Below, one piece after another: positions 12,859-38,300 of a stretch of 64,000 bases of DNA (position 1 is its first letter; each line of letters begins with the position of its first letter). The position numbers and the translations under genes were made by a program. Below the pieces are notes generated by a model. That model saw only the letters and a list, made by a program, of their open reading frames with translations, searched no databases and was not told the DNA's origin. Source of the stretch: Ascidiella aspersa (taxonomy: Eukaryota); NCBI GenBank assembly GCA_963924565.1, contig OZ004614.1, forward strand, positions 10,354,001-10,418,000. The letters are read 5' to 3'.

Positions 12859-14191
12859 AATATTATTTGAGTTAGCGTTTGTTTTAATATTAATTATAAT
12901 AATACCCACCCACACCCGAACCTAAACATTTTGCCTTGATTTGATAATTGCTTGACCGCTGTAGTAGGATTCCAGACCAGCGCCACGCTATCTTATTAGC
13001 GACTTACAGTACTGCGTAGCGCACGTGGAAGTTACAATTCGACATACCTTCTTGTTCTGCAGCTGAGGGATTGGCGGACGAACTGAATACTTATACCACG
13101 CGGTCGTAGTCTTGTGAAAACGAACTACGCTCGCGCTATCAAAACACGCTGATATTCATCACGAGCCTAATCCTAATGTCCCTATCCTACATCAAACGAA
13201 GCTATGTCTACCCTACACTAACCGAAGTAGATAGGAATCGTTTTGTATATGCTAAAAACACAAATCGCTGTTGACAGAACTGGTTGTTGCTATGGTTTCG
13301 ACCACGTGCAGCGGTATTGAGGCTCAAGTTTAATTTAAATCTTTACTGTCATCTCGCGGATTAAAATTTAACTCAGCTAATAGCTATACCTTCTTATTAA
13401 GAGAAAATCTGCCAAACAACAACTGATACACATTAAACGCTTTCTTTTAGCAACGACTTAAATAAACATTTTCCTTGGCCAAATTAAAGCAACTTTTACT
13501 TGAAATCTTCCCCCAAAATGTTTACTTCTTATTTTTTTAGCCTGACCTGTTTTGACACAGAGACTCAACCATATTTTTATAAATTGCATTGTTTAATTGG
13601 AACGTTTGATTTCTACAAGCGAAAGAGAATATAATTACATTTTCATATAGTATACCATTGTTCAGGCGTTCTACAGTGTTTGACGTCGAAAATTGTGCGT
13701 TCGACGTAACAAAAGTGCAAATATTTCATGTCTCGGTACAACACACACGCACATACACAAGGCAACGGTTTTAGTGTTTTGGGGGTTAATCTAAAAGTAC
13801 TACATGCCAGATTACGAGGGAACAGTATATTTTGGTTATTGTGTGTTTAGCGTAAAAATGAGAAAAATAGAGAATCGGAAGACTGGATTGTAAAACAAAA
13901 ACTGGTGGCGTACAACAGTTTCGATGTGCAAACAATAAAAAGGTGCAAATATAGATTTAAAACATAGAAATCTCTTTCAAACGACGTCAAAGAATTTGAA
14001 CGATAAGAACCCTTAAAAAAATTATTTTGCAGTTGAAAACAATAAGGCAGCCATGTGCATAGACAAACAGACAAGGGCCAAGCCCCGCTGCAGCGTAAAC
14101 CAGCATGGACTACATCTCCGAAAATGTGGATAGAATGGTCAAAAACTACGTTTCTACGAAGAAGAGAGAGAAAGTGGCGGAATAAGCGATG

Positions 14192-17100
14192 TTACTCCAA
14201 AAGGTTTTCCATTTCGCGTTCTAAATCATCGGTGGATGATCTCTTCGAGTTCGTTTGACTTTGCGACTGAGACTGGAAGCTCATTCCTGTTAGGTCTTCG
14301 CCGGCGAGTTGTTTCATTTGTTCTTTTTGCTGAACGAAAAAACAATAACTCTTGTATTTTTTATGTTAACAATGGAAAGAAATGTTTTATTTCTTGCAAA
14401 TGTTTAGTTGATTTAGGACTAGGCGAACCATACATTTTATAAGATAGCTTCTACAATAATCTATACGGATAAGCAAGCATTTAATATAAAAAATATTAAT
14501 CTAATAATATTTAAAAAAGGCTTTTTAAAAATGCTTTCTTATCTATAACCAAAATTACATTTATGCACCACATGTTTCATATAACCTACTTTTAACGAAC
14601 TTTACATAAAACTTGTTTGAGATTAAAGTTAAAAATTTTCATATATATTTATACGTTATATTACACTGTTAAGTAAACGAAATGTTACCTGCTGCAACAA
14701 ATCGCCTTGGTCGTCTCCGAGGTCCATCAATCCTTTGATGGTTTCGTGAACCAAACTCGCGAGTTCAGCGTCAGTCTGATCTCCCTTTGACGCTTGCATT
14801 TGGTCGACTGCGTCCTGCAAGCAGAAAACGTGTTGATATTTTAAAGTTTCAAGTCGACAAATGAAGCAGTTTAAACTCAATGCTCGCAGCGTGTAGAGGC
14901 GCTAGATTCCATAATTGGTAAATTTTTTGCGCAATGCTCGAAATGTTCAAGTTTCTGTTTGTTTTCAAAACGCTCAAAAAAAGGCACTCGACTCAAACAA
15001 ATTTTGCACATATACAAATTGTTTGTTTTTCTATCTGTATTGAATCAAAGCATTTTTTAAGGCATAGTAAGATTCATAAATTTCGTGTACATTTTGACTG
15101 TAGCAATTTACCAAGGCGGACTTTTCCTTTTGAGTTAAGTTGACATAACTTACCGCTTGTTTGTAAACGTCATTAAGCTTGCTGTACGTTTAGCTTAAAA
15201 TGAATGCGTTTCAAAATTCATAGAATTAATAGTCGATTGTTAGGATGATACCTTGTGCCGGTGTTTGACCTGGGCTTGTGATGACTTTAATGGTTGAAAA
15301 AAAATATTTTTTTGCAAAAATGAAAACCGACTTTAAATTTAACATATGTCGTCATACGAAAATCTGGCAAACCTCGATGTTTGAGTGTAATTCCTCCTGA
15401 CTGCTGACACTTTCCGCAGCCTTCGCGTTCAACTGCTCGATCGCTTGACTCGCCTTCGCCTCGAGGTTGGTCGGTAGGTCAAGGTTGTCCGAATTTAGCT
15501 TTGCAATCACCTGACGCACTTCGCTCTGGAACTCTTGGTGCGCGATCGCGTCCGCCACGGATTGCTGCAAAACGTAATGCAAATTGTTTTGCTCTGTCAA
15601 AACACAACGGTGACAAGCCCTTTGGAAGCAAAACTTTTATTGAAACAAAGCCCATTGTGAAACCCTTGGAGCAACTATAGCCGGGGTGGCCAAAACGCGG
15701 CTCGCGAACCCAGTTATATGCGGCTCTTACGTTCATGTTGCACTTATGATTTTTGGAACGTTTTGATTTCGTTTGGCAAAGGTATAGCGGGATTATTGCC
15801 GGTTCCGACTCAGACTCTTTGCCTTAAGGCCATTGTATTGTTAGTAACAATTTTGAAACAAGACAAACGGAAAAAATATTCCCAAATAGTATTGACAAAT
15901 GACATTGTATCGAGAAATGGGTGTTTTTTTCACCCAATGCGTCGCGTCTCACTTCTAAATTAAAATTTTGTCCACGCACTTTTTTCGCGCTTCGTGCGAT
16001 CGCTTTGTGGGAGTGAGTAAGAAATGGGGTGATAGGCAATTTTTTTGTTCTAGTGTGTAAAGAGTGGTTCTATAGGAAGGCAGATTTTTTTATTGTTACA
16101 ACCCACACTTTACACGTTGCAGATGGAATAGTATTGTTTGGAAAAAGGATCATGTCGACACTTAGGAAAAGAAAAAAACGCAATGTTGCACGCTGCATGT
16201 TCTTTCCATCATTATATCTAATCTGGAAGCCATAAGAAATTAATTAAAGTAAAATCAATAGAATAATTTTTGTTGTTGATAAACTGCTATCGGATTGGAC
16301 AAAATTCAATTCCCTTCAGGCAACTTGCAAACATTAGCTCACCTCTTCCAACTCGCTGTCCAGATTGGAAATCTGTGCTTGAATCTGCTGCTGAGCTTGC
16401 TTCTGTGCCGATTCGCCTCCCTCGCTTAAGGATCCTGCGTTGATCTGATTGATCAGCTTCTGGATGTCGCTGTTTAGTTCCTCCTGTGGGCGAAGCGATT
16501 TTGGTAAAGAAAAGAAAAAGCGGCATTTTTGCATAATTTATGGGAAAGTGGCATGTTTAACTAATTTATGGGAAAGTGTCATGTTTGGCTAATTTATAGA
16601 AAGTGGCATTTTTGACTAATTTATGTTTCGGTAAAGCAGGGTTTATTAGAGTGGGCCAAGAAGGTTTAGCAGAGAGGGGGTGCGAAGGGCTACTTCAAAT
16701 TGATTTAATACCAAGCATTGCTGCTGAGAATAACTGTTTGGTGCTGCTTTTTCGGCCGTTACTGACACATGTTATTTTATGCCAATACCTTGATCTGTTG
16801 TTCTCAGTGGTATTAATTTTGTTTTGCCTTTTTTGCCTTGAGTTAAAGCGTCCCTAATGTAGTTACACATTGTGTTATCAGGAGGTTTCGCACAATGCCA
16901 TTCCCAAACTATATTTTGTTAACTTTTACTATAGAAATGCCTTTTTTCGCGTTTGGCACGAAATTAATCTACATTTTACTACGTGTTCTCCCGCTTTAAG
17001 GAAATCTTTGACAAGAGCGCGGTACCCAGAATGGCAAAATCTTTTGCTGTGTGAAATTACATATTCTGAAACGACAATGAGTTTTTAGCGAGTAATCTGA

Positions 17101-17381
17101 AACCGACCTTTTAGTGTAACGTTTTAACCTTATTTTTACGTTCATCGTATAAAGTCTTGTAAAACAACGACAGTTTAATGCAGCATTCTTAGTTTATAAT
17201 AATACCGTAGTGATTATTCCCAAACAAATATAATTGCTATACACAAAAAAGTACGACAAAAAAACTAGTTTTATACCTGGTTGTTGGCAGCGTCTTGAAT
17301 TGATTCAAAACCCTGACTTTGTGACTGGGAGCTGGTTTGACTTTGCCCGTTGCCGTTGTTGATTTGGATCTGGGTTTGACT
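14192..17381 (-). CDS. Mucin C-terminal Cys-free Gln/Glu-rich tail, 5 phase-0 exons ending in TAA at 14192-14194
   Basis: [23 protein letters not shown]...; [17 protein letters not shown]...; [23 protein letters not shown]...; [11 protein letters not shown]...; [45 protein letters not shown]. All have canonical splice sites. Confidence 0.82.
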
Positions 17382-20300
17382 CTAAATGTTAACATAAAAT
17401 GCCCTATTTAAACAAATATACCCCAAATGCGTCCAGCAAATCAACATGGAAACCTATTTAAATTGCATTCCAAACTTAGAAAATCAAGTTTATTGCTTTA
17501 CCTGATGGTTTCCACCGGTGCTGCTCGATCCGCCGGTTTGCGTGTTGTCGTTGGAGTTGACAAGACCGTCGATGATGCTGTTCACCTGATCTTGAATGCT
17601 CTCTACCTCCTGACTCTGACTCTGCGACTGCGACTGCGAACCGCCTCCGCCGGAGCAACACTTCACTCGAATCTCATAGTCCTCGCACACAGGATGCGTC
17701 GTCTGCTGGTTGGCGATGCACTCAAGACCAACGTTTACGTCGCAACTCACCACCTGCCATTCCTGGTAGGAGGCAAACTCGGCCACGGTGCCACCCACCG
17801 GCCTGCATTCGATCTCGGTGGGCGACTCACAGATCTCCGTGCCTGTGCTTCTAATCTTCTCATATGTTTCGATGTCGTCGCGCTCCGGCATTTTCGGACG
17901 CGAAGCGCTGATCCAATCGGACCAAGTGCACGCTTCAGTCGTGGTCGTTGCCTCGGTGGTTGTTGTTGTTGCCACGGTAGTGGTTGTTGCAACTGTGGTG
18001 GTAGTTGCCTCAGTGGTTGTGGTTGGTTCTGGAGTTGGTTTCATCGTCGTAGTCGTGGTTGTTACTGGTTCTTGTGGAACAGTAACTGTGGTTATTTCAC
18101 CAGAACCTGATTCTTCTTCAGTTGTGGTCGGTACTGGTTTGGTTGCAACTGTGGTAGTGGTCACTGGTTCTTGGGGAACGGTAACTGTGGTTATTTCACC
18201 AGAACCAGATTCTTCTTCAGTTGTGGTCGGTACCGGTTTGGTTGCTACTGTGGTAGTGGTCACTGGTTCTTGTGGAACAGTAATTGTGGTTATTTCTCCG
18301 GAACCAGATTCTTCTTCAGTTGTGGTCGGTACTGGTTTGGTTGCAACTGTGGTAGTGGTCACTGGTTCTTGTGGAACGGTAACAGTGGTTATTTCTCCGG
18401 AACCAGATTCTTCTTCAGTTGTGGTCGGTACTGGTTTGGTTGCAACTGTGGTAGTGGTTACTGGTTCTTGTGGAACGGTAACAGTGGTTATTTCTCCGGA
18501 ACCAGATTCTTCCTCAGTTGTGGTCGGTACTGGTTTGGTTGCTACTGTGGTAGTGGTTACTGGTTCTTGTGGAACGGTAACAGTGGTTATTTCTCCGGAA
18601 CCAGATTCTTCTTCAGTTGTGGTCGGTACTGGTTTGGTTGCTACTGTGGTAGTGGTCACTGGTTCTTGGGGAACAGTAACTGTGGTTATTTCTCCGGAAC
18701 CAGATTCTTCTTCAGTTGTGGTCGGTACTGGTTTGGTTGCAACTGTGGTAGTGGTTACTGGTTCTTGTGGAACGGTAACAGTGGTTATTTCTCCGGAACC
18801 AGATTCTTCTTCAGTTGTGGTCGGTACTGGTTTGGTTGCAACTGTGGTAGTGGTTACTGGTTCTTGTGGAACGGTAGCAGTGGTTATTTCACCAGAACCA
18901 GATTCTTCTTCGGTTGTGGTCGGTACTGGTTTGGTTGCTACTGTGGTAGTGGTCACTGGTTCTTGTGGAACTGTAACAGTGTTTATTTCTCCGGAACCAG
19001 ATTCTTCTTCAGTTGTGGTCGGTACTGGTTTGGTTGCTACTGTGGTAGTGGTCACTGGTTCTTGTGGAACAGTAACTGTAGTTATTTCACCAGAACCAGA
19101 TTCTTCTTCAGTTGTGGTCGGTACTGGTTTGGTTGCTACTGTGGTAGTGGTCACTGGTTCTTGTGGAACAGTAACTGTGGTTATTTCTCCGGAACCAGAT
19201 TCTTCCTCAGTTGTGGTCGGTACTGGTTTGGTTGCTACTGTGGTAGTGGCTACTGGTTCTTGTGGAAGGGTAACAGTGGTTATTTCTCCGGAACCAGATT
19301 CTTCTTCAGTTGTGGTCGGTACTGGTTTGGTTGCTACTGTGGTAGTAGTTACTGGTTCTTGTGGAACGGTAACAGTGGTTATTTCTCCGGAACCAGATTC
19401 TTCTTCAGTTGTGGACGGTACTGGTTTGGTTGCTACGGTGGTAGTGGTTACTGGTTCTTGTGGAACGGTAACAGTGGTTATTTCACCAGAACCAGATTCT
19501 TCTTCGGTTGTGGTCGGTACTGGTTTGGTTGCTACTGTGGTAGTGGTCACTGGTTCTTGTGGAACAGTAACAGTGGTTATTTCTCCGGAACCAGATTCTT
19601 CTTCAGTTGTGGTCGGCACCGGTTTGGTTGCAACTGTGGTAGTGATCACTGGTTCTTGTGGAACAGTAACTGTGGTTATTTCTCCGGAACCAGATTCTTC
19701 TTCAGTTGTGGTCGGCACCGGTTTGGTTGCAACTGTGGTAGTGGTCACTGGTTCTTGTGGAACGGTAACAGTAGTTATTTCTCCGGAACCAGATTCTTCT
19801 TCAGTTGTGGTCGGTACTGGTTTGGTTGCAACTGTGGTAGTGGTCGCTGGTTCTTGTGGAACAGTAACTGTGGTTATTTCACCAGAACCAGATTCTTCTT
19901 CAGTTGTGGTCGGTACTGGTTTGGTTACAGCTGTGGTAGTGGTCACTGGTTCTTGTGGAACTGTAACAGTGGTTGTTTCACCAGAACCAGATTCTTCTTC
20001 AGTTGTGGTCGGCACGGGCTTGGTTGCTGCGGTGGTGGTGGTTATTGGTTCCTGCGGCGCTGGTGTGGTAATCGTTGGTTGACAGGCAGCAGTGCATCCG
20101 CAAGCTTCGACATCGGTGTACGAATACTGAATTTCGGTGCCGTTCTTACATTTCATAGCGATAACACGCTGAACGGTTTCGGTAGGCTGGCAGCAGGAGC
20201 ACTTACTGTTAGCACCGTATTCCGTCCAAAAGTAGCTGTCGCGGCAGAAGCCATCGCAGTAAGATTGTGAGACGGGTTGGTTAGATGCACAGCCGTCAAT

Positions 20301-23300
20301 GACCATGTACTCAGGTTTGGTACTGATGTGCCTTCCGCAGGCGAAGCATTCGCTCTCGCATTTTAGACAGCAACCGTCGTCGGTCGAAACCACCTTGCCA
20401 TTGTTGTTAACGCAAGCATCGTGGTCAAATGGCGGGCACGGGTTTTTCATGCACTTCTCCTCGTGGAAGCCGTGCTCGTTCATTTCCTCGCTGCACATGC
20501 ACGTGTGGCATTTGTCAGGCGCCCATTGTTGGCCGAGCTGTAACAACATTTTGCATTACTAAACTTGTAAAATACTATAACCTTCCATTAATAATTCAAG
20601 TATTTAAGCATCTACGTGACGTTTGGTGAATTTCAGAAGTCTTCGATCAACATTAAAACATGACATGGTTGTATTTTGGGAAATATAAAATTAGACTAAT
20701 ATATTTTAAACCAAAACGCAATTTAAAAACTTGCCATTTGTTTAAACAAGCAAAAATACAGACAAAGATTGTGAGATTTCATAAGGCTAAACCGTACAAC
20801 TAATCTTTTACGTCGTTTGTATTGTTTTATTTTTTATTTTTACAAGGCAATCATTTGTACAATAAATCAAGGGCGACGTTGTGTGATCTCAGGGTTCAAC
20901 TTCTAATACACAAGACCGCTAAAGGTTACTCACCGGTTTCTCCATGTCATTGTCGCAGCAGACCTTCTTGGGCTCGCACGAAAACGTGGGACAGCAGTCC
21001 TCCGTCGTTTCGACAAGTACATGACAGGCCGGGCATTGTGGCACAGTTTGCGGAGGACAGGGGTAACTATTCTCGATGACAACCATGCCGTTAATGTTGG
21101 TTACGCACATGTACGATGAGCAATTGTGCACGAATTCCCAGTTGCTTCCAGACTTGAAAACAACAAATGCGACAGATGACAATTAAAGTTCGTTTAAAAC
21201 AGCATTCTATGGAAATTTTGGTGATGTTAGGTAAGAGATTGCTACGCATGTTTAGACGTATGGTATGAGGTTACTTTTGATATCATAGTTACAAGTTTTT
21301 TTACCAGACAATACAAAATATAACAATAAATGGATGAATTTAAAGACAAGCCGACTATTTTATGTCAGTATTTCATAACTTGGCGTTTCTATCAATAAAA
21401 AAACGCAGTCATTATTTGGTTATATACTTTTTAAAGTATTATGTTGTGTTTGCTAAAAATACCAACGCTGTGCGACTTCCTTAATTCGTACAAAACAACG
21501 GCATGTCGTCTGTATGAAGATACATTCATCGGGTTAAAACATACAAGGGTCTTTCACTTACCTCCTTGCAGCTCAGTACTCCTTCTTCGTGAACCGCGCA
21601 TCCGTTGGGCACGCATTGGCCGCAACACTCGCCAGCGGGAACAATGTAGTCGTGGCAGGGTGGACAACTTGTATCGCAGTCCATGACCACACAGGTCTCG
21701 ACGTGGCACGAGTTAGCGGAGTTAACGTCGTCGAGGCACTGGCAGTGCGTGCACACGTCAGGCTGCCACTCTTGGCCGGGCTGAAAAAATAATACGGTTT
21801 TAAGGGCTGAAATAATAACGTTTTAAGTAAAAAAATTATACTTTAACCTGACAAAGCATGGTTGTGCGAAAGCTTGTCGAGACTTCAACACAATTTGTCT
21901 TTATATAGTGCAACCTGATTACTCTATTTGGAATTAGACAAATACGGTGATTTACAAAGATTGTCAAGTAAAAGTAACTCACGTTCGTGCAGATATTCAC
22001 GTTCGTACGGGGTTCTAAACAAACGTATTTTTGTCCGATTGCACCATGTGAAATAGTTAAATTTGTGGAAACTTTGGCCGATGTTGAAATGGGTTAAGAA
22101 TAAGATTAATGTTAATTTGTTGCTACAATTCGAACACAGTAGCAAAGGATCAACGAAGAAACCACAAAATGGTTATCGAGTCAGTTGACCCTGAAGGTAT
22201 AAGGAATTGAGGTTACAGCAGTTAAGGCGATATAAACGTAGTATTTTTTAACAAACTATGGTAACTTTAAAATTTGGAAAAAATAACCGAAAATACAAAA
22301 ATATATACTATCTAAAGAAAGAGAAGGCTTGTTCAATAAAATAATTGCATCCACTATAATACTTCTTGGCGTTCTATAACTCTTACCGCAATCACGTCAA
22401 TCACCACTAGTAAAGCCCGTTCTCTTATTTCAAAATACGTTATCAACACGTTATACTCAAGTTTAAAAGCCAAGTATCCGGAAAACAAGAAGCTGGTTGA
22501 ATATATATATTTTGCCAAGTGAGGCCGTCAGTTTATTAGTACTGATTTTTGTTTTAACTAAAGTAAGAAAGGGTTGGTGTCGTGTTGTGTGGCCCACTCA
22601 CGTTGTACACTTTGCCGTCGACCAAGCAGATGTTCTTGCTGACGCACGTCACGTGACGACAGTTGCACGAGTCGACTTCGATCACAGATTCCTCGCACTG
22701 GGAACATGGCTGGTTGGATGGACACTGGTTGCACTCTGCGAGCATTACGTATACTCTATGTTAATGCGAGGCTTAGCAAACTGGCGCAAAATCACTTAAT
22801 GACCAGTCGCAGCAATTCTTAACACTGCGACAATTTAGAATAAACACTGTTTGATATTTGTTTAATTTTCGCAAAACATAAACAGTTGGTTTGCACCTAA
22901 ATTATTTTAATTCAACCCAATACATTTATAAGTATTTCTATTTGAAATCAGCTGACGCGTTAGCAAAAATAATTTTCTTAATACTTTTAATATTCGATTC
23001 GCCGTTAACCTCAACAAGATAAAACTAGTTCAGAAATGATTTAATTGAAAGTAATTAACTAAGCGCTGTAAAAGACAATGGTTTTGTGAAACTTGAACTC
23101 CATCTTTAAAGAGCAAGGTAAAACAATTTTGCCTGCTGAATCTCTTATGGCACTAAGTCAGTGAATTTACTGAAGTGCATTCAGTCACCTTTTTACACGG
23201 CTTACCAGGTAATTTGGGTAAGTGATTGACTTGGACTTTAATCGTTTACACATTTATTATTACCTTCCAAGGGTTTTAATTAAACTACATTACTGAAACT

Positions 23301-26300
23301 GGGTTGACGTCAAATCCGGTATTTTAACGTCAATTCCTACTTGAAAAGAGGTTTGCTTCCTACTAAACTTGGTTTGTTATAGATGTTTTCCATGCGAAAT
23401 ATCGAAATGGAACTAGTTTGACATTTTAATAGCTTAACATTTATTTTGAAAGCCGTTCCTTTTGCTCGTACTCGATTTGCCATAATCCTGAATAGGAAAA
23501 AAATCCCACGCTTACCGCAAGAATGCAACGGGCAGCATTCGGTCTCGTGGGTGACTAGGTGCTGGTTGGAGCTGCACTGGGGCGCCTCGGGACATGGATT
23601 GCGTGATGTGTTGCAGTGGCAGTCGTACTCCGGGATGCACTCGTCATTGTCGATGCGTTCCGGTACGTATCCCGGTGGACACTTTGGAACCGGAACCACG
23701 TCACAGCCCTCCTCGCCCTTGCCAAGTTCGTAGTTGCAGGCTGCGCGAAACAAACAGCCGTTTTTTGGCGAAATAGCGAAACAAAAGTTTCGTTTTTAAC
23801 GCGTAAATGCTGCATTTTTTGCCTTTTTACTTTGCGGGTTTTGACTTCTTTTTTTACAGTTATAAGGCTAGCCGAACGACAAACTTGTTTTAAGTTGTGT
23901 ATACTTTGTTGGCACAACACACTATACTGGATGTTTTCTGTAAAGGAACACATTAAAAGGTAAAGCAGGGTAAAACACGGCACTTGCAAAATAAAAAAAA
24001 ATAGAAAATATAAGAAATTTGAAATTTGAAACAAGAAACAAAGCTGCACACGTAGAATGAATATCAAAAGCAATACAGAAGTTGTTTATTTTCAACATTG
24101 TTCTTCATTTTCAACATTGTAAAAAAATGCTGCTTACTGTATGCTTATTATTCATTCCACGGTTACATACAACTTCCAGCTATTATTCTCCAAAGACTCT
24201 ATTCACAAGTTTTAAATCTAGGTTTTAGACATGTGTTGTCGAAACATCAGACTGCAAGTTTCTGATAAGCAAAAAAAATCTCATATAGCTTAAATGAAAG
24301 AAACTCACTGCAGTCGTATTGTGGGCAGCACGGGTCGGTTGTAACCCTGCGTTGGGGCACCTGACAGGGGCCACAGCTGGGTACCTCCTCTTGGAAACCA
24401 GCTGGACAGGTGACCTTATCGCAGACGATTTCGTGGCCCACTGAACAGCTGCACATCGTGCACTCGTCTTGGAACCAAGTTTCGCCGAACTGAAAAAAAG
24501 CAGCAAACAGTGAAGATATGCCAAATCAAGTTTTTAAAGTACACGGTCCGATTGAAAAAATGTCCCATACTTGACATTTTATTCGGATACCGATAGACAA
24601 TATTTGAATACAAAGTATCGCGATACGGCCGAAATCAAATTGCGTCATTACTATGCTTAAAACAAACAAAATAGACAAATATCAAATGGTAAAGGTTTTT
24701 TTTTTCAATTTGTTAAGTCAAAACGTGTTTTAGCGTTAGCAAATTCAGTTATCTCCAGAATCTACTTTTTTGAAATAGTTAATAACTTTTACATTATAAT
24801 CGCTGCGTTGAATCGCATATATTTCCGGAATTCTCATATAAATTTGGTATCGGATCAGCACCAATGCATCCCTAGTATCGGCTAAAGGCACCGATATTAA
24901 CGAACGTTCTTAAACTAACCAGCAGTTAGCGCCAGGTGGATATGACGTTTAATTACAGGATTTAACATCAGCTTGGAATTCAATTACACGCTACACCGCC
25001 AGGTAAACTGGTTAATTAGGTTTAGGGCACGTTTGAAAGTGTGCGTTCTGTGTTTTTAATTGGGAATCAAGCAAACATATAGGCACTGCTGGGCATAATG
25101 ATCGGAGGTTGTAGTAAAGCGTATAACAGTATCAAAACCCATACAGAAAGAGGTATTATTATGAACGTTTCAAACAACTCTTTATTCATTTTCAACATCT
25201 TAAAAAAAGATGTTGAAAATAAATAAAGAGTTATTCGAAACGTTCAAATTGATACCTACTTCTGTATAGGCTTCGATATTCCAATTACGTATATGTATTG
25301 TGTTCTGACTTTTCTTAAAAAAGAAAGTTCTCATTGGCTGCGCTGCGAATCTACCGCACACCCATGGTGTACTTGTTATGCGAAACAAGTTGTGAAAAGT
25401 TGCATTATTATCGAGGCAAACACTTTGGTTTACCGTGGTTTTTCGCTGTTGCACTCACCCTGTACGTGTTGTTGTGCTCGTCGATGCACTTGTTGTCGCA
25501 CTTGAAGCAGCAGCCGTTCTCGGTGAGCACCTTCTTACCACCGCGAGCCTCACAAGTCGTAGGATCGAAGGGCGGACACCAGATGTGAGTGCATTTTACC
25601 TCCAGGAATCCGGTCTGCCTGTTCAGCTCGCTGCCGCACACGCAGTTGTGGCAGTCGTCCACGCTCGGTGTGGGTTGGCCGGGCTGCAAGTGTCAAAAGG
25701 TGTACAAAAGTTAGTGATCATAGCGCGTGTATTAGAAACCACACCGATGGGTTTATTCCGTGTTAAAAAGAGCGCTTATGCGATTTTTAAATTCGACTAA
25801 ACTCGATGTTCTTTCTTTGTCGCGGAGTCGGGATGACTTTGGGTGTGCTTTCACTTTTTTAAACCACTTTACTTAACTTTGACCTTTGGGTAAATTGATT
25901 CGACTAAGGTTATATTTAAACCAAATTTGACTTAAACTCAAGGGTTGAAGACAAACTAGTGGATTTTATAACCTACTTTTTAATCGACTGGGACTTATTG
26001 TTTTTTTTAAAATTGAGTTATTTGCAACACTGTCGTATTGGTCAGTAACAGTTTCTTAAAAGAAGCCTGAAGGCAAGCCCACCGAACGTATCATTAAAAA
26101 CAAAGGAATAGCTTCAAAACCACGAACAACAACTTACCAGAATAGCCGAGCCGTCCACGCAGCAGACGTTATCCGGCACACACTCGAAACTGGGGCAGCA
26201 GTCCACAGTGGTCTGCTCGAGTCGGTAGCAAGTCGGGCATGACTTGACATCCAGAACCGGGCAGTTGATCGGGCTTGTTGTAATCTCGGTGTTGCCGTTG

Positions 26301-29300
26301 CTGTCCATCACGCATTGCTTGGTAGTGCAGTTGGACAATTCGTCGTGGGACTGGCCGACCTGAAAGGTGGAAAACGATAACCTGTTAGTGCTTTGTGCGT
26401 GGGTGTTATCCCTGTTTTCGCAATAAACCATCGTAGGGCTAAAAAGTATGATCTATTGTCTAGGTCTCCCTGATCTTAACAGTCGCCTTTCGTTGCCGTT
26501 TTTTTTCTGTGCGATTGGCAATACAGCGTTTTTAGTACATAGAAACATCTATATTTATATTTAGTCACACAAACAAATATAAACGCAAGAAAATAATTCT
26601 CCGTGCGAGACCTTATAGATTGACTGTTTAACGCTTATCCATTACAGTTTTTTGTCAAATGTGTAATACTTGACCTTAAAACCTAATCTGTTTAGCGCTC
26701 GAATAAAACACTTTCACAGGCCGGTCGAAAAATCACGATCCAACTCAAACGGGATTTTCTAAAAGTGAAAACGTGTCGAAAAGCCCTACCTCATCCACAT
26801 TATACCACACAGCACACATATATGTAAAACCTGCCCATATAAATCCGCCTAACAACTGCCGCCTAAAGTCCTCCTTACCTCGGCACAGAACATCTCTTCG
26901 TCCGCTCCCTGTACATGGCATCCTGTGTCGAAGCACTCTCCGCAGCATTGTCCAGCCACCGGTCTGTATTCGGAGCAGGGCGGGCAATAGGTGGAGCAAC
27001 TGTAGGCCATGCACTGGTATGCCAGGCAGCCGTGCTTGTCGGGCATCTGGTTTTCGGCACAGGTGCACTCGGTGCAAAGGTCGGGGAACCACATATCACC
27101 GGGCTGCGAAGCAACATTATTAAACGCTGTTTAGAAAGTATTTCGGATGAACTTTATCCGGGGCTCAAAACAAATCCGTTCTATTCTAAAATGAATCCAC
27201 AATATAGCAATCACTGTTGATGGCAATTAGAAGTAAAATCTGTATGAGACACAATTTATTAATTTAACAAAAAGCTATATATTTTTATCTTGTTAAATAT
27301 TTTATTTCAGAACATTTCTCATACGTAAAATTTCCTGTGATTTTCCTGATGTTCAATACAACCAAATAAAAATCAAAAACCATGGAAAACGATAATAATT
27401 TAACGTGTAAAATTAACATCGCCAATTAAAGTTGATTTTAACTCAACTAGATATTGTAAAATGTAATTCGGCATACAAGGTTTGAAGATATACCGAAACA
27501 AACAGCACGGAAAAAGGACACTGTTTTTCTAAATTACTGTTTAAACTGGTCCACATTTGTTACCTGGTAGTCGGTGCCGTTGTCTCTGCAGACTCCCTTA
27601 TTGACGCAAGAGTAGCTCTCACACCCGCAAGCGTCCTCGTGGATCACTGTGCTCTGGCACTGGCCGCATATCGTAGAGTCTTCCGCGCACTTGTTGCATA
27701 CTGCGTCGCGCGAACAAAAACACTTTGGTTATGCGCAATATCTTATACACAGCGCTGTCGCGCACAAAGCATTACCTTTGTAGACATTTGCATCTATTTC
27801 TGCTTAATTTAATAAAAATGTTATTTACTGTAGAACACCAATTTTAGATGGAATTCAACACCTGTCTTAACAAAGTTTAGTTACAAAATCAGTCACTATA
27901 ATTACACTTTATGATAATTAATAGTTTATAAAATACTTTACTCGAATATCGCAAAATAACAAAAGATCATGGCAAACTCTCTTTAGAGCAAAACAAGACA
28001 CAAAATACCAATCAAAAAACAGCTCCTCTGGTAATTGTAAGTTTTACCAACGTTTCGACAACCTATGTTAGTCGCCTTCGTCAGGGTGAATGACATGGAA
28101 AAGACACAAAATGGTGGCAAAAAGCTGCCGTCGCCCTGACGTCGACTGAAACAGAACAAACCTTACCGCAAGTGTGAACGGGACAGCAATCTCCAGGGGT
28201 GGTAACAAGATGGTGGAGGGGCGGGCAGGCGTGCGGTGTGGGGCAGGGGTTCCTGTCCGGGTTGCACTCGCACTGGTACTCGGGGATGCAGTGGCCCGGG
28301 TTGGCCTGGTTCATGATAAAGCCGGGTTCGCAGATAGGCTGGGGAACTGCCTCGCAATCTCCCTCTCCCTTACCAAGTTCGTAGTTGCAAACTGTCAAAA
28401 AATTGTTTTGAACTTGTTGCTCGCGTGCAAGTGGGCATATTTTGCCTTGGCGTGAAGATTTTTATTGTGTAACTCAAAAAGGCCTTATTCGTAATCGTTC
28501 TGAAAATGTTATTTAAAGTAGAATGATTAAAATTTTGCCAAGTATATTAACTCTATATTTGTGGTAAAGTTATACCGATGTATTGCCTATTACATGACGT
28601 TTATTTGTATAATATTTAACGACAAAAAAAATACAGTCCACTTTTTCAAAAAAAGATCGTCTTCGAAAAAGTGCACAGCGCCTTTGATTTCACGATGCAA
28701 TATATCGGCGCTCAATACACACTTCAAACAGCCCATAAAAGTCTAGGCCTAATTTTGTCAGGCAGATGATGTTTCCAACCAACTAGAAACAAGAAACATT
28801 ACAAGATAGGCCCGACCAGTGTTGTAATGACTCAAGTCATTGACTTGACTAAAGTGCACTTAAGTCACCGTTTTCAAATGACTCGACTTGACTTAAGTCT
28901 TTTGGACAAATGAATTGACTTGGACTTAAGTCATTTTGTCAAATAACTTGGAAGTAAATTAAGTGGTTTTTTTTAATTTATCTCAAGTTTTGCAACATTA
29001 ACCACTTTTATTGCTGTCCATTGCGCTTGTGTGTGTTTTTTTAATTGAATTGTTGCTTGCAATGGGACGAGTTTGCCAATTTTAATTATTTAACAATTTA
29101 CTTTTATGACAATGACATGACTTGAAATTGACTTGCTCTCATAATGACTTGACTTGGACATAGGTTATTTTTCAAAATACTTGACTTGGACTTAAGTCAT
29201 TTCAAACTGACTTTTTAACAACACTGGGCCCGACCACAAACATCTTACCACAGTGGTACTCGGGGCAGCATGGGTCTGATCCCCGCACCAGTTCGGCAAC

Positions 29301-32300
29301 GTGGCAGGGGGCACATTCCGGGACTTCCCCGGTCCAGCCCCCTGGGCACGACGTTGGGGTGCAGGCGATGGCCTGGTTCTCCATGCACGAACAGAAGGTA
29401 CATTCCTCGCCCTCAGGTATCCAGCTTTCTCCGTACTAAACAACAATGTAATATACGTTAGCACCAAAGAGGGGTGGATTGCAAATGGCTGTCCACTAAT
29501 GGCTTTTATAATTTCTAAACGTTTAAAATTAAACCGATTTGGAAAAACGATACGGGTTAGCATTCGAAGTTTGTACACTGTTGGACGGAAACTAACAATT
29601 TACTATGAACAACCTAAACACAGAGATTCAAAATGCGAAAGGTGGACATTTGTTGAAAAACAGTAACTAAAAACGATGGATTATATTATGCATTTAGTGT
29701 AAAAAGGGTTCGAGATTAGAGAAATAGGCTTCGTTGATATTAACGGCGTTAAAAATGGACATTGTAAAGTTTACCATAGGCATATAGGCAATTTTCTGTT
29801 CTTGGTTGACCAACCATAGTAAAATGTACACACCCTAAAGCAACCATAGGTTACAGGAACGTGTTCTACACTTGTCGCAGAAAAGCTATAGACCAACTCG
29901 AAAGGGTTTACAGCTGCTATGGATAGTTCTTCAAACGAAAGCCAACCAAACCTTGTAAATGGTGCCGTCTTCTGCCACGCAGTTGGTGCAGTTTGACACG
30001 TGTTCACAGTTGCCGTTCACAAGCACGGTGTCGGTGGGACAGAAGCATCCCTCGGTGGCAATCTCCTCGTAACAAGGCACTCCGCTGTTGTAGTCCGCGC
30101 AGCTCTGTTCACAGTCGGGCATGCACGGCAAGTAGACGCGGTCAGACGGGCATTCAGGTGCTACGGAAAAGTTGTTTAAAAATGTTTATGGATTTTGTTG
30201 CAGTTAAAGGTTTGGCGCATTTGCGAAGAAAGATGGAAGGTTGTTTGACTTTTTTATAAATAGGATTATGGCTTGTTTTGTTACAATTTTTGAGAATAGG
30301 GCTACCGTACATGTACAAGACATTTGATAATAAAACTTAAACACTAATTTTAGCATTTTTTTTAATAAAACATTTTTTGCATAAGCAAATTTACACTAAT
30401 TGTTTAGTATACCTAATCTAAAACATAACCCGGTTTATGGTAAAAGAAAACAATTCATTGGAAGTTCTCATTGTAAAGTCTGTTGGCCTTGGGGGTTCTT
30501 TGGACTAGTTTTAAGCGGTGCACAAAGGCCTAATTGGAATATTTGTGATTACTTAAATTTGTGTGTGCAATTGGAATTATTACTTTCAAAAGAACAAAGT
30601 TTAATTGAAAAAAAAATGCTTGTAGGACCGAAACAGAAGATTTTTAATACTATAGTTTTATGATGTCAATTTATGACATAATTTTTGCCTCGCTTGTCTG
30701 CGCATTGCAAAACTGCATATGTTTTGCCGGAATTTAGTTTCGCCCTTTTGTTTGCATTCGCCTCACAAAACTGAGCGAAACTTACGACAGAAGTCTTCGC
30801 TACGCCAGTTGATGCAGATTCCCTCTTGCATGCAGGCTGCTGCGTAACCGTAAACAGCCTCACACGCCGAGTAGTTACCGCACTGGGAAGTGTCGTACTG
30901 GCAGATCTCATAATAGCGATCCGGGGCTAGAACAGCGTGGCACGCCTGGAATACAAAACGTCGTAACAAGTTATTTCAGCGTAAAAGTTGGACAAAACGT
31001 TTTTTTTTTAAAACAAAGACAACAAATAGAAAGGCGGTAGAACACACAGGTTGTCTAATTTAGTATACGGCTACGGCACTTTTATAACACAACAACAAAT
31101 AACTAAAGCTCAAAAAACTAACGCACCGAATTGGAATACAAACCGTCGTTACAGATTGGCTTTACAGTTGATTTTCAAGCTAATGCCATTTGCTTGTTCG
31201 ATTCTAACCGGAGTAACTGTTATGTAACTTAAAACTAATAAAGCCATGCACATGTAGCAATGAAAGGTGTTGTTGTAACATTCAGTTAATCAAAACCTAT
31301 GCAAATCCACCTGTAATGTGTTCTCGTAACGCAGACTTTTATGTGCTGCCAAAATTATTTAAAATGTGGCTTTATTGTGTGTAATTTCAACTACAATATA
31401 GTATATTTATGCAAGTGTCGACCGTTGTTATCATAAAACGCCATGATTAGTTCTGTTACATGCAAGTTTTTATTCCTCTTTTGCAACTAATAAACATTAG
31501 GGGGCGGTGAAATGCAGAGTTGGTATAATTCAGTAGATAGGACTTTAAATATAGCAACTTTATAGCACTGAAAAAATTAATAAAGCTTTAAAAACCTAAA
31601 AAAAAAAGATTTGTAAATATTTTTTTTACTACTTTTAAGATCTTTGGCACTTGCCTCGAATACGTCAGACTTAATGATCTCGCACTTCTCTGAGGGGGGC
31701 ACTGTGCAAGGTAGAGGGGGTCGGAAGCAGGATTCGGACTCGTTGAAAACCAGCCAGCTGTTGCCGAAGTCTTCGATCTCGGTGACAATGTGGCCCGATC
31801 TGTTGGTGAGTTCGTCACTCTGGTCGTTGTTGCATACGCCTGTGTTGAATCGATTAAAACGTTAATTACAACAAAGCGTCATACTTTGTCCATTGTAATT
31901 CCGTGAAAAATATTTGTATTTACGTAAAAAAGTATATAAACGGGCGTACTTTTATTCTTGACTAGGTTCAATAAATTGATGACTTTAATTGTATAAAAGT
32001 GTTAATAGAATCAAAAGTGTTAACTCGGTTAAAATCGTTTATTCTTTAGATAAGTTCCGCTTTGTGGATTCTATTGTTTCAATGAGTGTGCTAAATAGCA
32101 AAGCAAAAAGTTGTAAAGAAAATTAATTAAGATCGCGTGTAGGTGATCAAAATTGTTAGTTTTTCATAGGTTGCCAAGAATATATTACACCAAGCAAAAA
32201 TTAAATCGACATACAACTATGTTCATCTAAAAATAAGGAGTGATGGTTGGCCTGGACAGACCAAAAGAATCATTATTATTATACGAACACCCAAACGCTA

Positions 32301-35300
32301 CAATCACGTAAAAATACAATTAGACACCAGTAAATTACATTCACTTCTCGATTTGTTATTCCGGCTAATCGCTTTACCTACCACAAAGTCCCTCAGTCCT
32401 GTCGTAATAGACCGAGTAAGGAACAATCAAGCTCCAGCTGTAGTCCTTTCCAGTGTACGTCATAACCAGGTTTAGGGCGGGAATTGTGACGTAGAAGAGG
32501 CTCGTGCCACGCATTTCGACGTGGACCCCTCCGAACTCAGCAGGAAGTGAGGTCTTGCCAAGAAGGGAGCCGCCATCCACAGAGAACTGTTAGATGACAA
32601 ACATGTTTCTATTATAAAAATAGAAATGAGCCCGATCTAACAAAGATATAAAAAATAGGGATCCTTTTTGGGGTTTCCAGATAATTGTTAAAGGGATCCC
32701 AAAATAAAAAATAGTTTAGCGTACCGGCACATTGTTTTACTAAATGTATTTAATTTAAGTAAATTGCTACGATGGATCGGAATCAGCTCATACCCTACGT
32801 CACAAGTTCTTAAATTGATTTAAATCTGACGCACATGGAGGGGGTATGAAAACATTTTAGTATATTTTCTTAAACCTGTAATATACGATAAACACAAACC
32901 TAAAATTCAATGCCTCCAAAACTAAGAATATAACTTATGCTACGGTATTTTTTAATTTACTTTTACATTCATTACTATGTGTGGCGCTATTCACACATGC
33001 GAACTATTAGTTATATAGACTACCATCTAATGGTCCAGTGCATTTGTAACTTACGGTATAGTTCTTGTGCAGGACCACGTGGGTCGATTCGTAACGAATA
33101 GTCATCTTTCTGGTGCAAGTTGTTTCTGGGGCTTCGGGGCAAGCAACGTTCTCCATCCAGATCTGCAATGAATGTCACAGTAATTTAATTATCTATATGT
33201 TTTTTAAGTGTTTTTTTAATGTTAACGTAGACTTTATAAAAGTAATTGCTTTAAATATGGTGTTGCTGTCAGGCATTGTTTCAACTGATGAATGGTTCTT
33301 CATACTGCTCCAACCAAAAATATTATAGGCTTTCTGGTGTCACCTTGACACATTATAACATTAGAAAAACACCAGAAAACGGAAATGCAACCCAAAGTCA
33401 ACGCGGCCACTTGGCTTCCGGAAGCGGTTTGTTTTAGTGCCCACAGAAATTGTTTTCTTAATTACGAAAGGCTATAAAAGAAAAAAACTTATATCCCACC
33501 TCGTATTCGTGAGGGTGGTTGCTGTGGTGTTCGTTCATGTCGCGCGATAGCACGAAGGTGCAGTTGCCCTGGAAAGGATAGTAGTAGCCGTCGAAAGTGA
33601 AGAAGTGGGGATCGCCCTGGCCGAAGCAGTAGCCTGTAAATAAAAAATATTTCCACCGTGTCTTATCGAAAATTCACTGTATAGTTTGTACCCATTAAAC
33701 ATATCTGTACGTATATATTCTCTTAGGGTTTCAATGGCAATTAATAGATGCTAAACAGATAAAACGACAATAAACAATAAAAACTGCTTTTATTAGAAAT
33801 ATAAAACAAAACGCGTGCAAACGTATCTTTCGCTCAGAGACCCTAACGAACAGAGAAAAATAGGAATAAAGTTTGTTTATCAGTGGGTGAACGACTATAT
33901 CTGGAACTGGTGCTTTTAATATACGGCAGTATTTGAATGCATGTTAACATGAGACATGGAAAATTTTAACCCGGCTTTGAGTTTCAGTGGGTTACTGGTA
34001 TGAAGCAAAACCGTTTAATAAAACAATCGAAAAGTTCATCATTTTATCCATTTTCAATTTTGCAGTTTAATTTTACGATTCATCCAAAGCTTCAACCCCC
34101 CAAAACAAGCAGCGTTACTCACACTGGCATTCCCACTTGCACGTGCAACCGTCCTGCACTTCAACGGCCGGGAAGCCGTTGACGCAGGTGGGACGATTTT
34201 CGTCGGTGCACATCACGGTGTGATCCACGCTCTCGGTCCTACAGTTGCCCGGCGTCTCCTCGACGCACGTCAGTTCCACACAGAGGGACTCGTCCCCTCG
34301 CAGAGGCCAGGTGTCGCCGGGAGCGTGTGCGATGCCCTATATACGACCAAAACGCGACAATTTGATACCACTGAATTAAAGAGAAGAAGCGACTGGAACC
34401 CTACACTTGCCCTATTAGGGATGTCCGATACTTACATTTTTTATGACATTTTTTTAGACATTTTATTCGATACCGATAACCAATATTTTGGACAAAAACT
34501 ATCGCGTTCCGCTACTAATTCGATACCAATTGATGTTATTAAGCTAAACAAGCATAACAATAGCAGGGTTTCTTGAACTTTTTTTACTTCGGACCCCTAA
34601 AATTTATTCGCGTCGACCAAGGAATTGTAGAGATGACGTCATAAATTAACGTCACAATACAAACAGACTTTATAAATCTACTGTTTCCGGTCCGAAAAAT
34701 GTAAAATGGAAATACAGACTAAAATTCTAAAGAAACATTCTGTGCAAAAACGTTTGATTAAACTCTTTTCTTTGAAAAAAAAGGTTACTTTTTAAATATA
34801 CACTAATATTTACATTGCCTAAATGGAGCCCCAAGGGGTCCATGGACCCAGTTTAAGAACCCCTGACCTATAGGGATCTCCGATACTTGATATTTTAAAG
34901 GAAAAAAGGATTTTAGGAAAATATATATATTTTTTATAAACGATGCGTCTTACTCGAAAATATTTAGCAAAGCGTCAAACTCGAAATATTTAGCAAGATG
35001 GTGAATAGGCAAAAACACGAAATAGCTTGATTCGCAGGTTACTTTTATTCCATTCTACTTCGAATGTTACAAATAGTAGTTGAGCCTCACCTGACTGTCA
35101 ACGCATTCGCACCAGGGCTGGGTAGTGGTGGGGATTGGTTTGGGGGTCGTTTTGGGGGTGGTGGTCGTTTCGTCACGCGGCACGGTGGTGGTGGTGATCA
35201 CTGGTTCAGGGGTGGTGGTAGTGGGAGGGGGAGGGGGGCAGCTGCTCTCCGGAATGCATTTGTTGTTGACGTCATCCCAAACCTCGTCTGAAAGTGAAAA

Positions 35301-38300
35301 ACATGTTTTTTTGTGAATGGCGTTTATAATAAGCTGTAATATAAACTTGGATATACAAATAAGTGTGAAAACTGTAACGTTTTAGCCAATTGTGTTGAAG
35401 ATTTGACTAAGGCGCCGTAAGTGTTAATGTTTATAGGTTTTAAATGGCTTCGTCAGCGATAAGAAAACTTGAATCACTCGACTACACCGTTGCCTAGCCA
35501 ATTTTGTTACTTTCGAGTCAACCAAATAATCTTTTCAAGTTAGAGATATACTTTGCGACATTTGTCGTTCAAATAAATTCTATTCGTTAAAAAGCATCAC
35601 AGGCCAACCAGCATCGCAATACTTATAAAGATTGTTAGCACTTTATAGCAAATGTTTGCCGCATGTTTTCCTAAAATAATTTATCAGATTCGGTCATTCT
35701 TAGTGGTTGTCGCGCCAATAAGGCATAGGTTGTAAAAACACTACATCACCAGGATAAAATTAGAACAAGAGACCTTGTCTATTCCGGGCAAAAGTCTGAT
35801 ATAATCCTAGATAATTCAAAACCGAATCTCGTTGTAAACGGCTTATGGAAAAATTGGGGGTCACACTGTGATTAAAATTGGTTGTCTCCTAACACACAAT
35901 ACAAGATACTTAATGAATGAACGAAATTTCCATATATATACAATGGAAAAGTGGTCCGTCGTCCTAAACCTACAGATCAGTTATAAGAACAATCGTTTAC
36001 TGCAGAACCCACCTTCTTTGCAAACGACGTAGCAGCCCTCCAGCATAGGCCAGGCGCAGTCCTGGGGGTTCCTATCGTCACAGGTGGGTGGGCACGGGTT
36101 GCCGCAAGGGTCGTACTTCCACTCGCAAGTCTCGTTGTCGTATCCGAGCCCGAATCCCGGGTTGTACGCCTCGCACATTACCGGGCACACTTCGTTGCTT
36201 CTCCAGCTCACGCACACTTCCGCGTCGGCGCAGGCCTGGAACGCGGAGAAAAGGAAGATTAAATGACTAAGGCCAGTGGTTCTCAACCGAGGGGGGGGGG
36301 GTAATTCACCATTAGGGGGCAATTTTACTGCGGGCCTTGAATTTTGCTTCGCGTGGACTACGGTAGGCAAGAATTTTTTACAGATGACGTCATATATTAA
36401 CGCGAAAATACAAATATCGGTCCAAATAATGTGTTAGTGAAATGCAGTCGAATACATTCAGTGATTTAAATTAAACTGTTTTTTTTTTATTAAAAATTGA
36501 TTACTTCTTTCTTCGTGGACCCAGTAAAACTAGTTCACGGACTCCCAAGGGATCTTTGGACCCCAGTTTAAGAACCCCTGGTCTAAACGAAACCGGATTT
36601 GAACTCATAAATTAAAAAAGCACCAGGGCGAAACGTGAGACGATTGGTAAAAAAGATTGTTTTTCAGGAAAAAAACAAAACTCGTTTGCGCGCTTGTGAA
36701 AACAAACCAAACAACCAGCAGCAGCAACTGCATATGGACAGTACCTGTGCGTAGCTCGCCACCGCAGTACAGAAGCATTCGCAGTCGCCTCCGGCCGTGC
36801 AGCCGCAAGTGTCGAACAGACAGTCCTCGTAGAACTTGGTGGGGTCGACCTTGGCGTGGCATTCGGCGAACACTTCACTCGTGATAATGGCGCACTTCTT
36901 CTCGGCCCAGGGCGCACGATCGGGGTCTGACTCGCACGGGTTCTGGGGCGAGTCGGCGACGGGGCACGTTTCCATGATCTGCATTGAAATGCGTTTGAAA
37001 TATGGGGGTTCTTTGTAGGGTTTTGCGGAATGTCTTCGCTCGAATACACAGTATCAATTTCGACCGGCTAGGCGCTGTTGTAACATTGCGTTTGACAATA
37101 TAACCATCGTTTAATTTTAAACTCCTTGAGAGCGTATTAAACTAAAAATTGAATTTGCATTACAATATTCTTTAAAGTCGGAGTGAAACCCCAACAGTCC
37201 AAAACAATCTAAAACTCAAAACAATTTTAGGTTTTAAGAATATTTCGCTCTAAACCGGAATACAAATTTATAACGATTGTTTACAACCACAATGTTACCC
37301 AACTTTATATAGGCAATCCTTTGTGTTTTCTAACATCCATTTCTCCCTTCTTTTTTGTCTTATTTTTAAAATGACCAGCTTAATAAAACACCAACTCACC
37401 CTCCAATCGTCTCCAAATTCATTTGGATTTGCTGTGATGTCACCGTCACGCATTGTAAAATCGTTGCTCATATCGCCGTCGAAGCTACCACAGAGGCCGC
37501 ACACCTGGTGGGTAATAGTTAAATAAAATAAGAATGCTGCGAACAAATTCGCATTATGCGGTATTGAGTGTAAACATTTTTAAACGGGCTGTAGCTCAAA
37601 TATAACAACGCGCCCAAGATTATTTAAACCTTTAAGTTTACATAGACATTTTTACATACACGTTTGCAATGAAAAAACAGTTTTATTAAATTCTGCAATA
37701 AAAATAAAAATAAACAAAAAACACAATAAAAAAACAATAAAAAAAATAAAAATAAACACAATTTGCAATAAAAAAACAGTTTTATTAAACATAATTCATA
37801 AAACATTTGATTCAAAATATATGTGTGTGCAAAATACTCCAAAAAGCCATCGTCTGTGCAAAACACTCGTTGTTTAAATTTCTACATTTATCTTGAAAAA
37901 AAAAACGTTATAGTTATCATTGGCTTAAAAATTATGAAAAGCCGAAAAGATACATACTATCTATATTGGGTTAAAAATGGTGAAAGATCACTTAAAGCGA
38001 GTTAGTTACCTTGTGCATGTGTTGCGGATGGAGGCGGACTTTGACGGTATTTTCCTTATTCCACAAAACGTCGATTCCGGCGTTGGTTTCGACAATGTAG
38101 TAGATGGAGCCCTTTCGGACTGTGTACTTCACACCGTGGGGTGCTTCGGGAAAAGCGCTGTTGTGCTTGATCGACACAACCTTAAAAATAAGGGCAGTTA
38201 TAGTTTAATGTGTCGCAAATTTGGACAGGATTTCTTGTTTACAAAGCATTGCAATAAAACATGCAAGAAAGTTGTAAGTCGTCAACGATCGTCATTTTTT

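Follow-up and report, generated by a model that had tools for sequence, protein, structure and literature searches.

A conserved cysteine-free helical tail behind the cystine knot of an ascidian Ci-GFM1-type mucin: a candidate self-association module

Vertebrate gel-forming mucins carry PTS domains, which abound in proline, threonine and serine, and CysD domains between D3 and D4, and have a cystine knot at or near the C-terminus (available excerpts of PMC4948705 and PMC8752817). In MUC2 and VWF, the knot dimerises the chains via three disulfides and D3 joins the dimers (excerpts of PMC10082768 and PMC8752817). In its original report, Ci-GFM1 of the ascidian Ciona ranks third in abundance among the proteins of the chitinous envelope membrane of the gut, and is given as 2,880 amino acids (aa) long, its PTS measuring 50 residues and its knot lying at the C-terminus (Nakashima et al., 2018; PMC6109156). 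Ci-GFM1 was portrayed as having the layout of VWF and MUC2, knot last, and has served as molecular support for the idea that a tunicate chitin–mucin gut barrier preceded vertebrate mucus. The present analysis concerns a gene of the same type in Ascidiella aspersa, which lies in a stretch of 64,000 nt (assembly GCA_963924565.1, contig OZ004614.1, positions 10,354,001 to 10,418,000; hereafter the window, meaning the whole stretch analyzed) and whose 3′ end encodes a helical tail of 284 aa. We put at roughly 0.55 the probability that this tail is the genuine end module of ascidian mucins of the Ci-GFM1 type, acting as a non-covalent self-association tip that links glycosylated side arms.

The gene occupies 45 kb of the minus strand, with the helical tail at its 3′ end (Table 1). 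It encodes, in order, a signal peptide, a furin-type site, a (QX)n run, EGF repeats, FN2, CBM14, D1-D2-D′D3, a short PTS, D4, VWC repeats, the cystine knot, a long PTS, CysD and the helical tail. The 53-exon model has no internal stops; two of its donors probably lie 12 nt further on, with phases unchanged. The model is collinear with Ciona Ci-GFM1 (BBB15956.1; tblastn, 54.6% identity over about 2,875 aa) and has identities of 52.7% and 46.3% with the Clavelina and Styela proteins, respectively, in the main blocks. When Ciona fragments were searched back against the genome, all four matches of P0058 and the best match of P0059 were to this gene. In a quick tree of the D2–D3 region (21 rows, from which Ciona LOC445660 was omitted as it gave no long alignment), the Ci-GFM1 group (5 of the 21 rows) forms one branch, with a Shimodaira–Hasegawa-like approximate likelihood ratio test (SH-aLRT) value of 100, apart from VWF, vertebrate mucins and hemolectins. 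Collinearity and tree position identify the gene as orthologous to Ci-GFM1 of Ciona. This identity, together with an N-terminal (Gln-X)n run matching those of the tail, adds to an earlier reading of the window made from its letters alone (hereafter the original prediction).

About 1,090 residues lie C-terminal of the cystine knot. In the giant open reading frame that contains the knot, Pfam recognizes only CysD and the knot itself; the long PTS measures about 716 aa in all (Thr 35%), and between D3 and D4 there is just one exon, which encodes about 65 aa and holds a short PTS (about 35287–35091). The published Ci-GFM1 stops about 60 residues past the knot, within the second PTS repeat, whereas RefSeq XP_078481446.1 (4,037 aa) and the window gene continue through a long PTS, CysD and the tail, and in the RefSeq models now current for Ciona, Clavelina and Styela these elements all come behind the knot. 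The published end thus appears to be a truncation inside a PTS repeat. No published description of the tail was found in the literature searched, outside which the work on endostyle vWF-like proteins lies. The post-knot sequence, which includes an unnamed tunicate domain, is already present, undescribed, in RefSeq models.

The tail exons are joined to the giant exon (Table 1) by splicing. Among three sequence runs aligned to the window, X1 and X2 lie over introns as well as exons, and X3 contains spliced contigs; X3 is taken to be RNA from its splice joins, as its records carry no RNA label. An X3 contig of 1,400 nt (record 17) covers the end of the giant exon and, beyond it, tail exons only, which speaks against a doubt attached to the original prediction, namely that these exons might be unjoined. 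Four of its six pieces are listed, at 17502–18000 (record 91–592), 16343–16482, 15372–15564 and 14086–14329 (record 1157–1400), and the remaining two are deduced from exon lengths and depths: the record letters between 592 and 1157 number 564, which is the summed length of the four intervening exons, and the bin depths over the tail agree with exon-only coverage. The transcript reaches at least 14086, past the stop codon. Another X3 contig, of 6,017 nt, is also spliced, over upstream exons (at least eight pieces). Independent support for a tail joined behind CysD comes from environmental sequences: the intronless contigs L001 and L002 have the order PTS–CysD–PTS–CysD–helix 1–(QX)n, and the protein P0023 has the order PTS–CysD–helical tail.

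Some further details of this region were recorded. In L001 (782–1687), a short PTS stands between the two CysD domains, and helix 1 is followed by a long (Gln-X)n repeat array. A 34-nt mini-exon (15285–15252) and a segment near 15180–15110 were rejected as exons, because the arithmetic of the 1,400-nt contig leaves no space for them. A separate X3 contig (depth 70) lies on 13600–14023, just past the stop codon, and may be more 3′ untranslated region or another transcript.

The tail begins after the last CysD cysteines and is assembled from six exon parts without internal stops. It contains 16.9% Gln (48 residues), 14.8% Ser, 10 Lys and 1 Pro, lacks Cys, Trp and Tyr, and has a net charge of −33. 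The original prediction of a Gln-rich, cysteine-free module of about 280 aa, in which (QS)n runs alternate with amphipathic segments, agrees with this composition, all five segments that it quoted are present in the translation, and its coordinates are right. It recognized no domain family in the module, and no Pfam family reaches the cut-off for the five downstream tail exons (best FlxA, 21 bits versus 26.3).

The fusion of the tail to a preceding CysD recurs in Ciona, Clavelina and Styela and in two environmental proteins. The tail is kept in Ciona XP_078481446.1, in all four Clavelina isoforms and in all 11 long Styela records among those listed (one gene, with two sets of isoforms). The window tail shares 40% identity with that of Ciona and 37% with that of Clavelina (both end to end), 34% with part of that of Styela (171 columns) and 20–26% with those of the environmental proteins P0001, P0023 and P0024. 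For each of the five tails examined by shuffling, the local alignment score is higher than in every one of 1,000 shuffles of either kind. All seven tails are acidic (net charge −25 to −38), cysteine-free and helical. Helix 1, a hydrophobic-Pro break and a long final helix are the conserved elements, and a short terminal helix is shared by the four ascidian proteins (that of the window and those of the three named genera). The Q/S/G linkers between the helices expand or disappear freely; Gln content varies from 3.9 to 21.9% among the tails and is 4–7% in three homologues that keep the helices. Across these alignments, conservation in the tail falls on a hydrophobic stripe and not on the Gln linkers. 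Searched against 1.84 billion representatives, the P0001 tail returned four matches, all of the Ci-GFM1-tail family. The ancestor shared by Ciona, Clavelina and Styela already had the module.

Hydrophobic helical periodicity exceeds that of all 100 shuffles in six of the seven tails (the exception is Styela), with a period of 3.5–3.65 across the tails and a stripe at heptad positions a, d and e. In a heptad register picked by the analyst, position a of helix 1 is L/I/V/M/F in 18 of 18 cells. In the final helix (six sequences), the same residues occupy a in 17/30, d in 21/30 and e in 17/30 cells, but b in 2/30 and c in 0/36. The original prediction placed a helical module at the end of the side arm, and the coiled-coil or bundle role that it proposed would fit this conserved stripe. 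AlphaFold models, made for the homologue P0001 from 1- and 9-sequence inputs (predicted local distance difference test values, 59 and 52), have four long helices and no confident tertiary fold (predicted template modelling score, pTM, 0.21 and 0.26), which is expected if the helices need a partner. With these low-confidence models, two Foldseek searches gave no matches at E ≤ 0.001, the second yielding weak CysD rows. A wide structural search, which tests only residues 201–297 of the P0001 model well, found none of 48,161 chains at Z ≥ 8; the best score (7.5; root-mean-square deviation 1.7, 69 aligned) reflects generic long helices. PDB sequence searches gave CysD matches and one weak coiled-coil match, SYCE2 (E 0.014). 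Internal duplication of the helix exons is unsupported: similarity beyond the shared hydrophobic core is at the shuffled level (833 of 2,000), and of the 3 exon pairs (out of 15) with z > 3, two owe this to Q/S runs.

A conserved, cysteine-free amphipathic module at the arm tips is best explained as a self-association element. In the mechanism that we propose, the chains would polymerise through cystine-knot and D3 disulfides, as inferred from VWF and MUC2 biology. The D3 and knot cysteines align with the VWF, MUC2 and MUC5B rows (Styela lacks one), and certain of them presumably form the interchain bonds. The backbone would be short, VWF-like and held to chitin by CBM14. Since its place is behind the knot, the long PTS would dangle from the polymer, two glycosylated arms to each knot dimer, rather than form part of the backbone. 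The tail helices would then pair or bundle across chains, which would close two arms into a loop or bridge neighbouring polymers into a mesh. This self-association would depend on low pH or Ca2+ because of the strong negative charge, and further contacts, of beta type, would come from the (Gln-X)n runs.

A tentative and rather unlikely extension of this mechanism would make tunicate GFM1 a third polymer design on the VWF/mucin scaffold: a short disulfide rope with glycosylated arms of roughly 700 residues, whose pH- or Ca2+-switched helical and (Gln-X)n sticker tips would also grip the furin-exposed N-terminal (Gln-X)n run, so that the protein would assemble itself on gut chitin into a ladder or mesh with regular spacing and a fixed pore size. 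In addition, each of the 20 PTS repeats has an acidic Ser-Gly motif, with similar motifs in Ciona, Clavelina, Styela, L001/L002 and P0023. This motif resembles the glycosaminoglycan attachment-site consensus, and the side arm may be proteoglycan-like and bear glycosaminoglycans.

Several observations weigh against the self-association tip. Styela lacks most of the helical part, and its periodicity does not rise above that of shuffles; one Styela protein (P0005, XP_039268050.2) also has Leu at a knot cysteine that is kept in VWF and the other ascidians. The best period in the window, Ciona and Clavelina is 3.65, which is that of a generic amphipathic helix and not a strict heptad, and many residues at core positions are polar, with D/E/H/Q/N at 13 of 30 a positions in the final helix. 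The low pTM obtained from 1- and 9-sequence inputs would fit disorder equally well. The PTS repeat is bridged by no single read or contig; what connects knot and tail is the open genomic exon of 3,036 nt, together with the RefSeq models. Moreover, a full-length cDNA ending just after the knot has been published (accessible portion of PMC6109156), and a tail-less form may exist.

The glutamine runs offer the most serious alternative. Alternating-Gln runs with at least four Gln are found at residues 44–73 and in the tail, and nowhere else, in all four full-length ascidian proteins; the intervening roughly 3,300–3,700 residues have none, nor do any of four control proteins (VWF, mucin or Ciona VWD). 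The furin-type site is followed closely by the N-terminal run, which mirrors the tail, and basic tetrapeptides occur at the place equivalent to RRRR in Ciona, Clavelina and Styela. QxQxQ counts exceed those of all 2,000 shuffles in six of the seven tails (P0024 has none). The placement of the runs suggests that they take part in assembly at either end of the protein. They could even be the working part, with head and tail beta-sheets (a polar zipper or cross-beta) joining N-termini to arm tips, while the helices would serve as spacers or as a switch for solubility. The strict period of 2, the confinement of the runs to both ends and the great expansion of the runs in L001 and L002 speak for this idea, which we nevertheless consider doubtful: the runs are weak or absent in three compact homologues (short in P0001 and P0023, none in P0024, which is probably partial) that keep the helices nonetheless, and the contrast with controls involves just four proteins.

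It is unlikely that the tail is instead a granule-packing or sorting module, which would condense the mucin at low pH and high Ca2+, be released or trimmed on secretion, and make no cross-link in the finished gel. The acidic, cysteine-free, helical character of all seven tails recalls granins, which are themselves acidic, but there is no sequence link to granins in Pfam. The window and Clavelina tails have a KR pair ahead of the terminal helix, but Ciona lacks it, and a cut there would remove just about 13 residues. Furin is known to remove the short post-knot tail of MUC2 (excerpt of PMC10082768).

Covalent cross-linking of the Gln-rich tail by transglutaminase after secretion, for which the tail would be a substrate as the original prediction also suggested, appears quite improbable. 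TGM3 cross-links secreted MUC2 in mouse colon (excerpt of PMC8752817), the genome has three transglutaminase-core matches, and the tail offers its 48 Gln alongside the 10 Lys; however, it is the hydrophobic stripe that is conserved and not the Gln content. Such cross-linking would be compatible with self-association of the tail, as a second step.

The original prediction had set phase-0 tail introns against mixed phases upstream and had raised possible capture from a separate downstream gene. The five tail introns are indeed all GT..AG and all phase 0, and the upstream phases are mixed (21 phase 0, 21 phase 1 and 5 phase 2; n = 47), but phase-0 runs also occur upstream, in the three introns preceding the giant exon and in another five consecutive introns of the D3 region. 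These upstream runs and the fusion behind CysD in the three named genera and two environmental proteins run counter to capture, as does the search for stand-alone homologues, which found no stand-alone or second copy in the genome: tail exon 4, used as a query, is single copy, and the blank result with the P0001 tail carries little weight because that query missed the window's own exons too. It is very unlikely that the tail was once its own downstream gene, taken in through read-through, or that it is a separate gene joined on in error, for although the older Ciona RefSeq set lists it as its own 395-aa gene (XP_018670561.1, "putative mediator subunit 26") and P0024 (probably partial) is tail only, XP_018670561.1 starts inside CysD and is near-identical to the end of the 4,037-aa model (98% to P0059), helix 1 shares an exon with the knot, and no stand-alone family was found among the 1.84 billion representatives; the tail as a separate gene is largely refuted, and an ancient capture is possible.

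Table 1. Coordinates of the mucin gene and its elements in the window.
Feature	Position	Strand	Description
Whole gene	14192..58773	−	53 coding exons, about 3,930 aa
RRRR, predicted furin-type site	57182..57193	−	After signal peptide
(Gln-X)n runs, N-terminal	56669..56755	−	Residues 45–73
Giant exon	20537–17502	−	3,036 nt: last VWC, cystine knot, 20 PTS repeats, CysD, tail residues 1–51
Cystine knot, internal	20073..20300	−	PF00007 match; 5′ part of the 3,036-nt exon; cysteines align with VWF
PTS repeats	18064..20051	−	20 copies of 99 bp (33 aa) each
CysD	17658..17924	−	PF13330, E 5e-21
Tail part 1	17502..17654	−	Giant-exon end, 51 aa: (QS)n run and helix 1, best conserved
Tail exon 2	17277..17381	−	35 aa: (QX)n and G/S/N linker
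Tail exon 3	16343..16483	−	47 aa: two amphipathic helical segments
Tail exon 4	15373..15564	−	64 aa: helices with conserved hydrophobic-Pro break
Tail exon 5	14689..14814	−	42 aa: long final heptad-like helix begins
Last exon	14192..14329	−	45 aa and TAA: (QS)n, KR pair, short terminal helix

Other features of the locus are as follows. One GC-AG intron occurs in the gene model at 42524, and probably a second at about 31651 (minus strand). A tail intron contains a high-copy interspersed repeat at 15708–16046, where the summed depth is in the thousands compared with about 60–110 beside it, and a 28-bp tandem repeat lies at 16517–16625. The downstream neighbour on the same strand has a doublecortin-domain exon at 7778–8017 (minus strand; PF03607, E 4e-13), and a second neighbour exon at 8663–8905 (minus strand) resembles it without a Pfam match.

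If the full protein runs on for some 1,100 residues more, its glycosylated domain behind the knot and a new adhesive tip at the end, the predicted polymer is no longer a rope or a flat net but a bottle-brush able to cross-link sideways. The tail is small (200–300 residues), cysteine-free and easily expressed, which makes the idea directly testable, and it may serve as a self-assembling element in mucus-like materials.

Among known systems, the C-terminal coiled-coil tips of matrilins and the C-terminal domain of spidroins are functional analogies only, in that a terminal module of helices follows a long arm of repeats and is proposed to gather chains; the window tail has no sequence or fold match to them, has no cysteine and is interspersed with (Gln-X)n runs. 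Ci-GFM1 of Ciona shares FN2, CBM14, D1–D4, VWC and the knot with the window gene, and differs, as published, in ending without the long PTS, CysD and tail. VWF is similar in its compact D–VWC–knot backbone, in having no long central PTS and in the knot cysteine pattern, but it has VWA domains and ends at the knot; in the Ciona orthologue P0055, with which the window exons are collinear, Pfam finds four VWD stretches and no VWA domain. MUC2, MUC5AC and MUC5B have D1-D2-D′D3, D4, VWC, knot, PTS and CysD in common with the window gene, as well as the D3 and knot cysteines. In the window gene, however, the long PTS and CysD come after the knot, which is not C-terminal, and the protein belongs to a separate branch of the tree; MUC2 has only a short, furin-cut tail behind its knot (excerpt of PMC10082768). 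The protein is thus predicted to work like a gel-forming mucin, yet departs from the MUC2/5 layout in two respects, the position of the PTS and the place of the knot.

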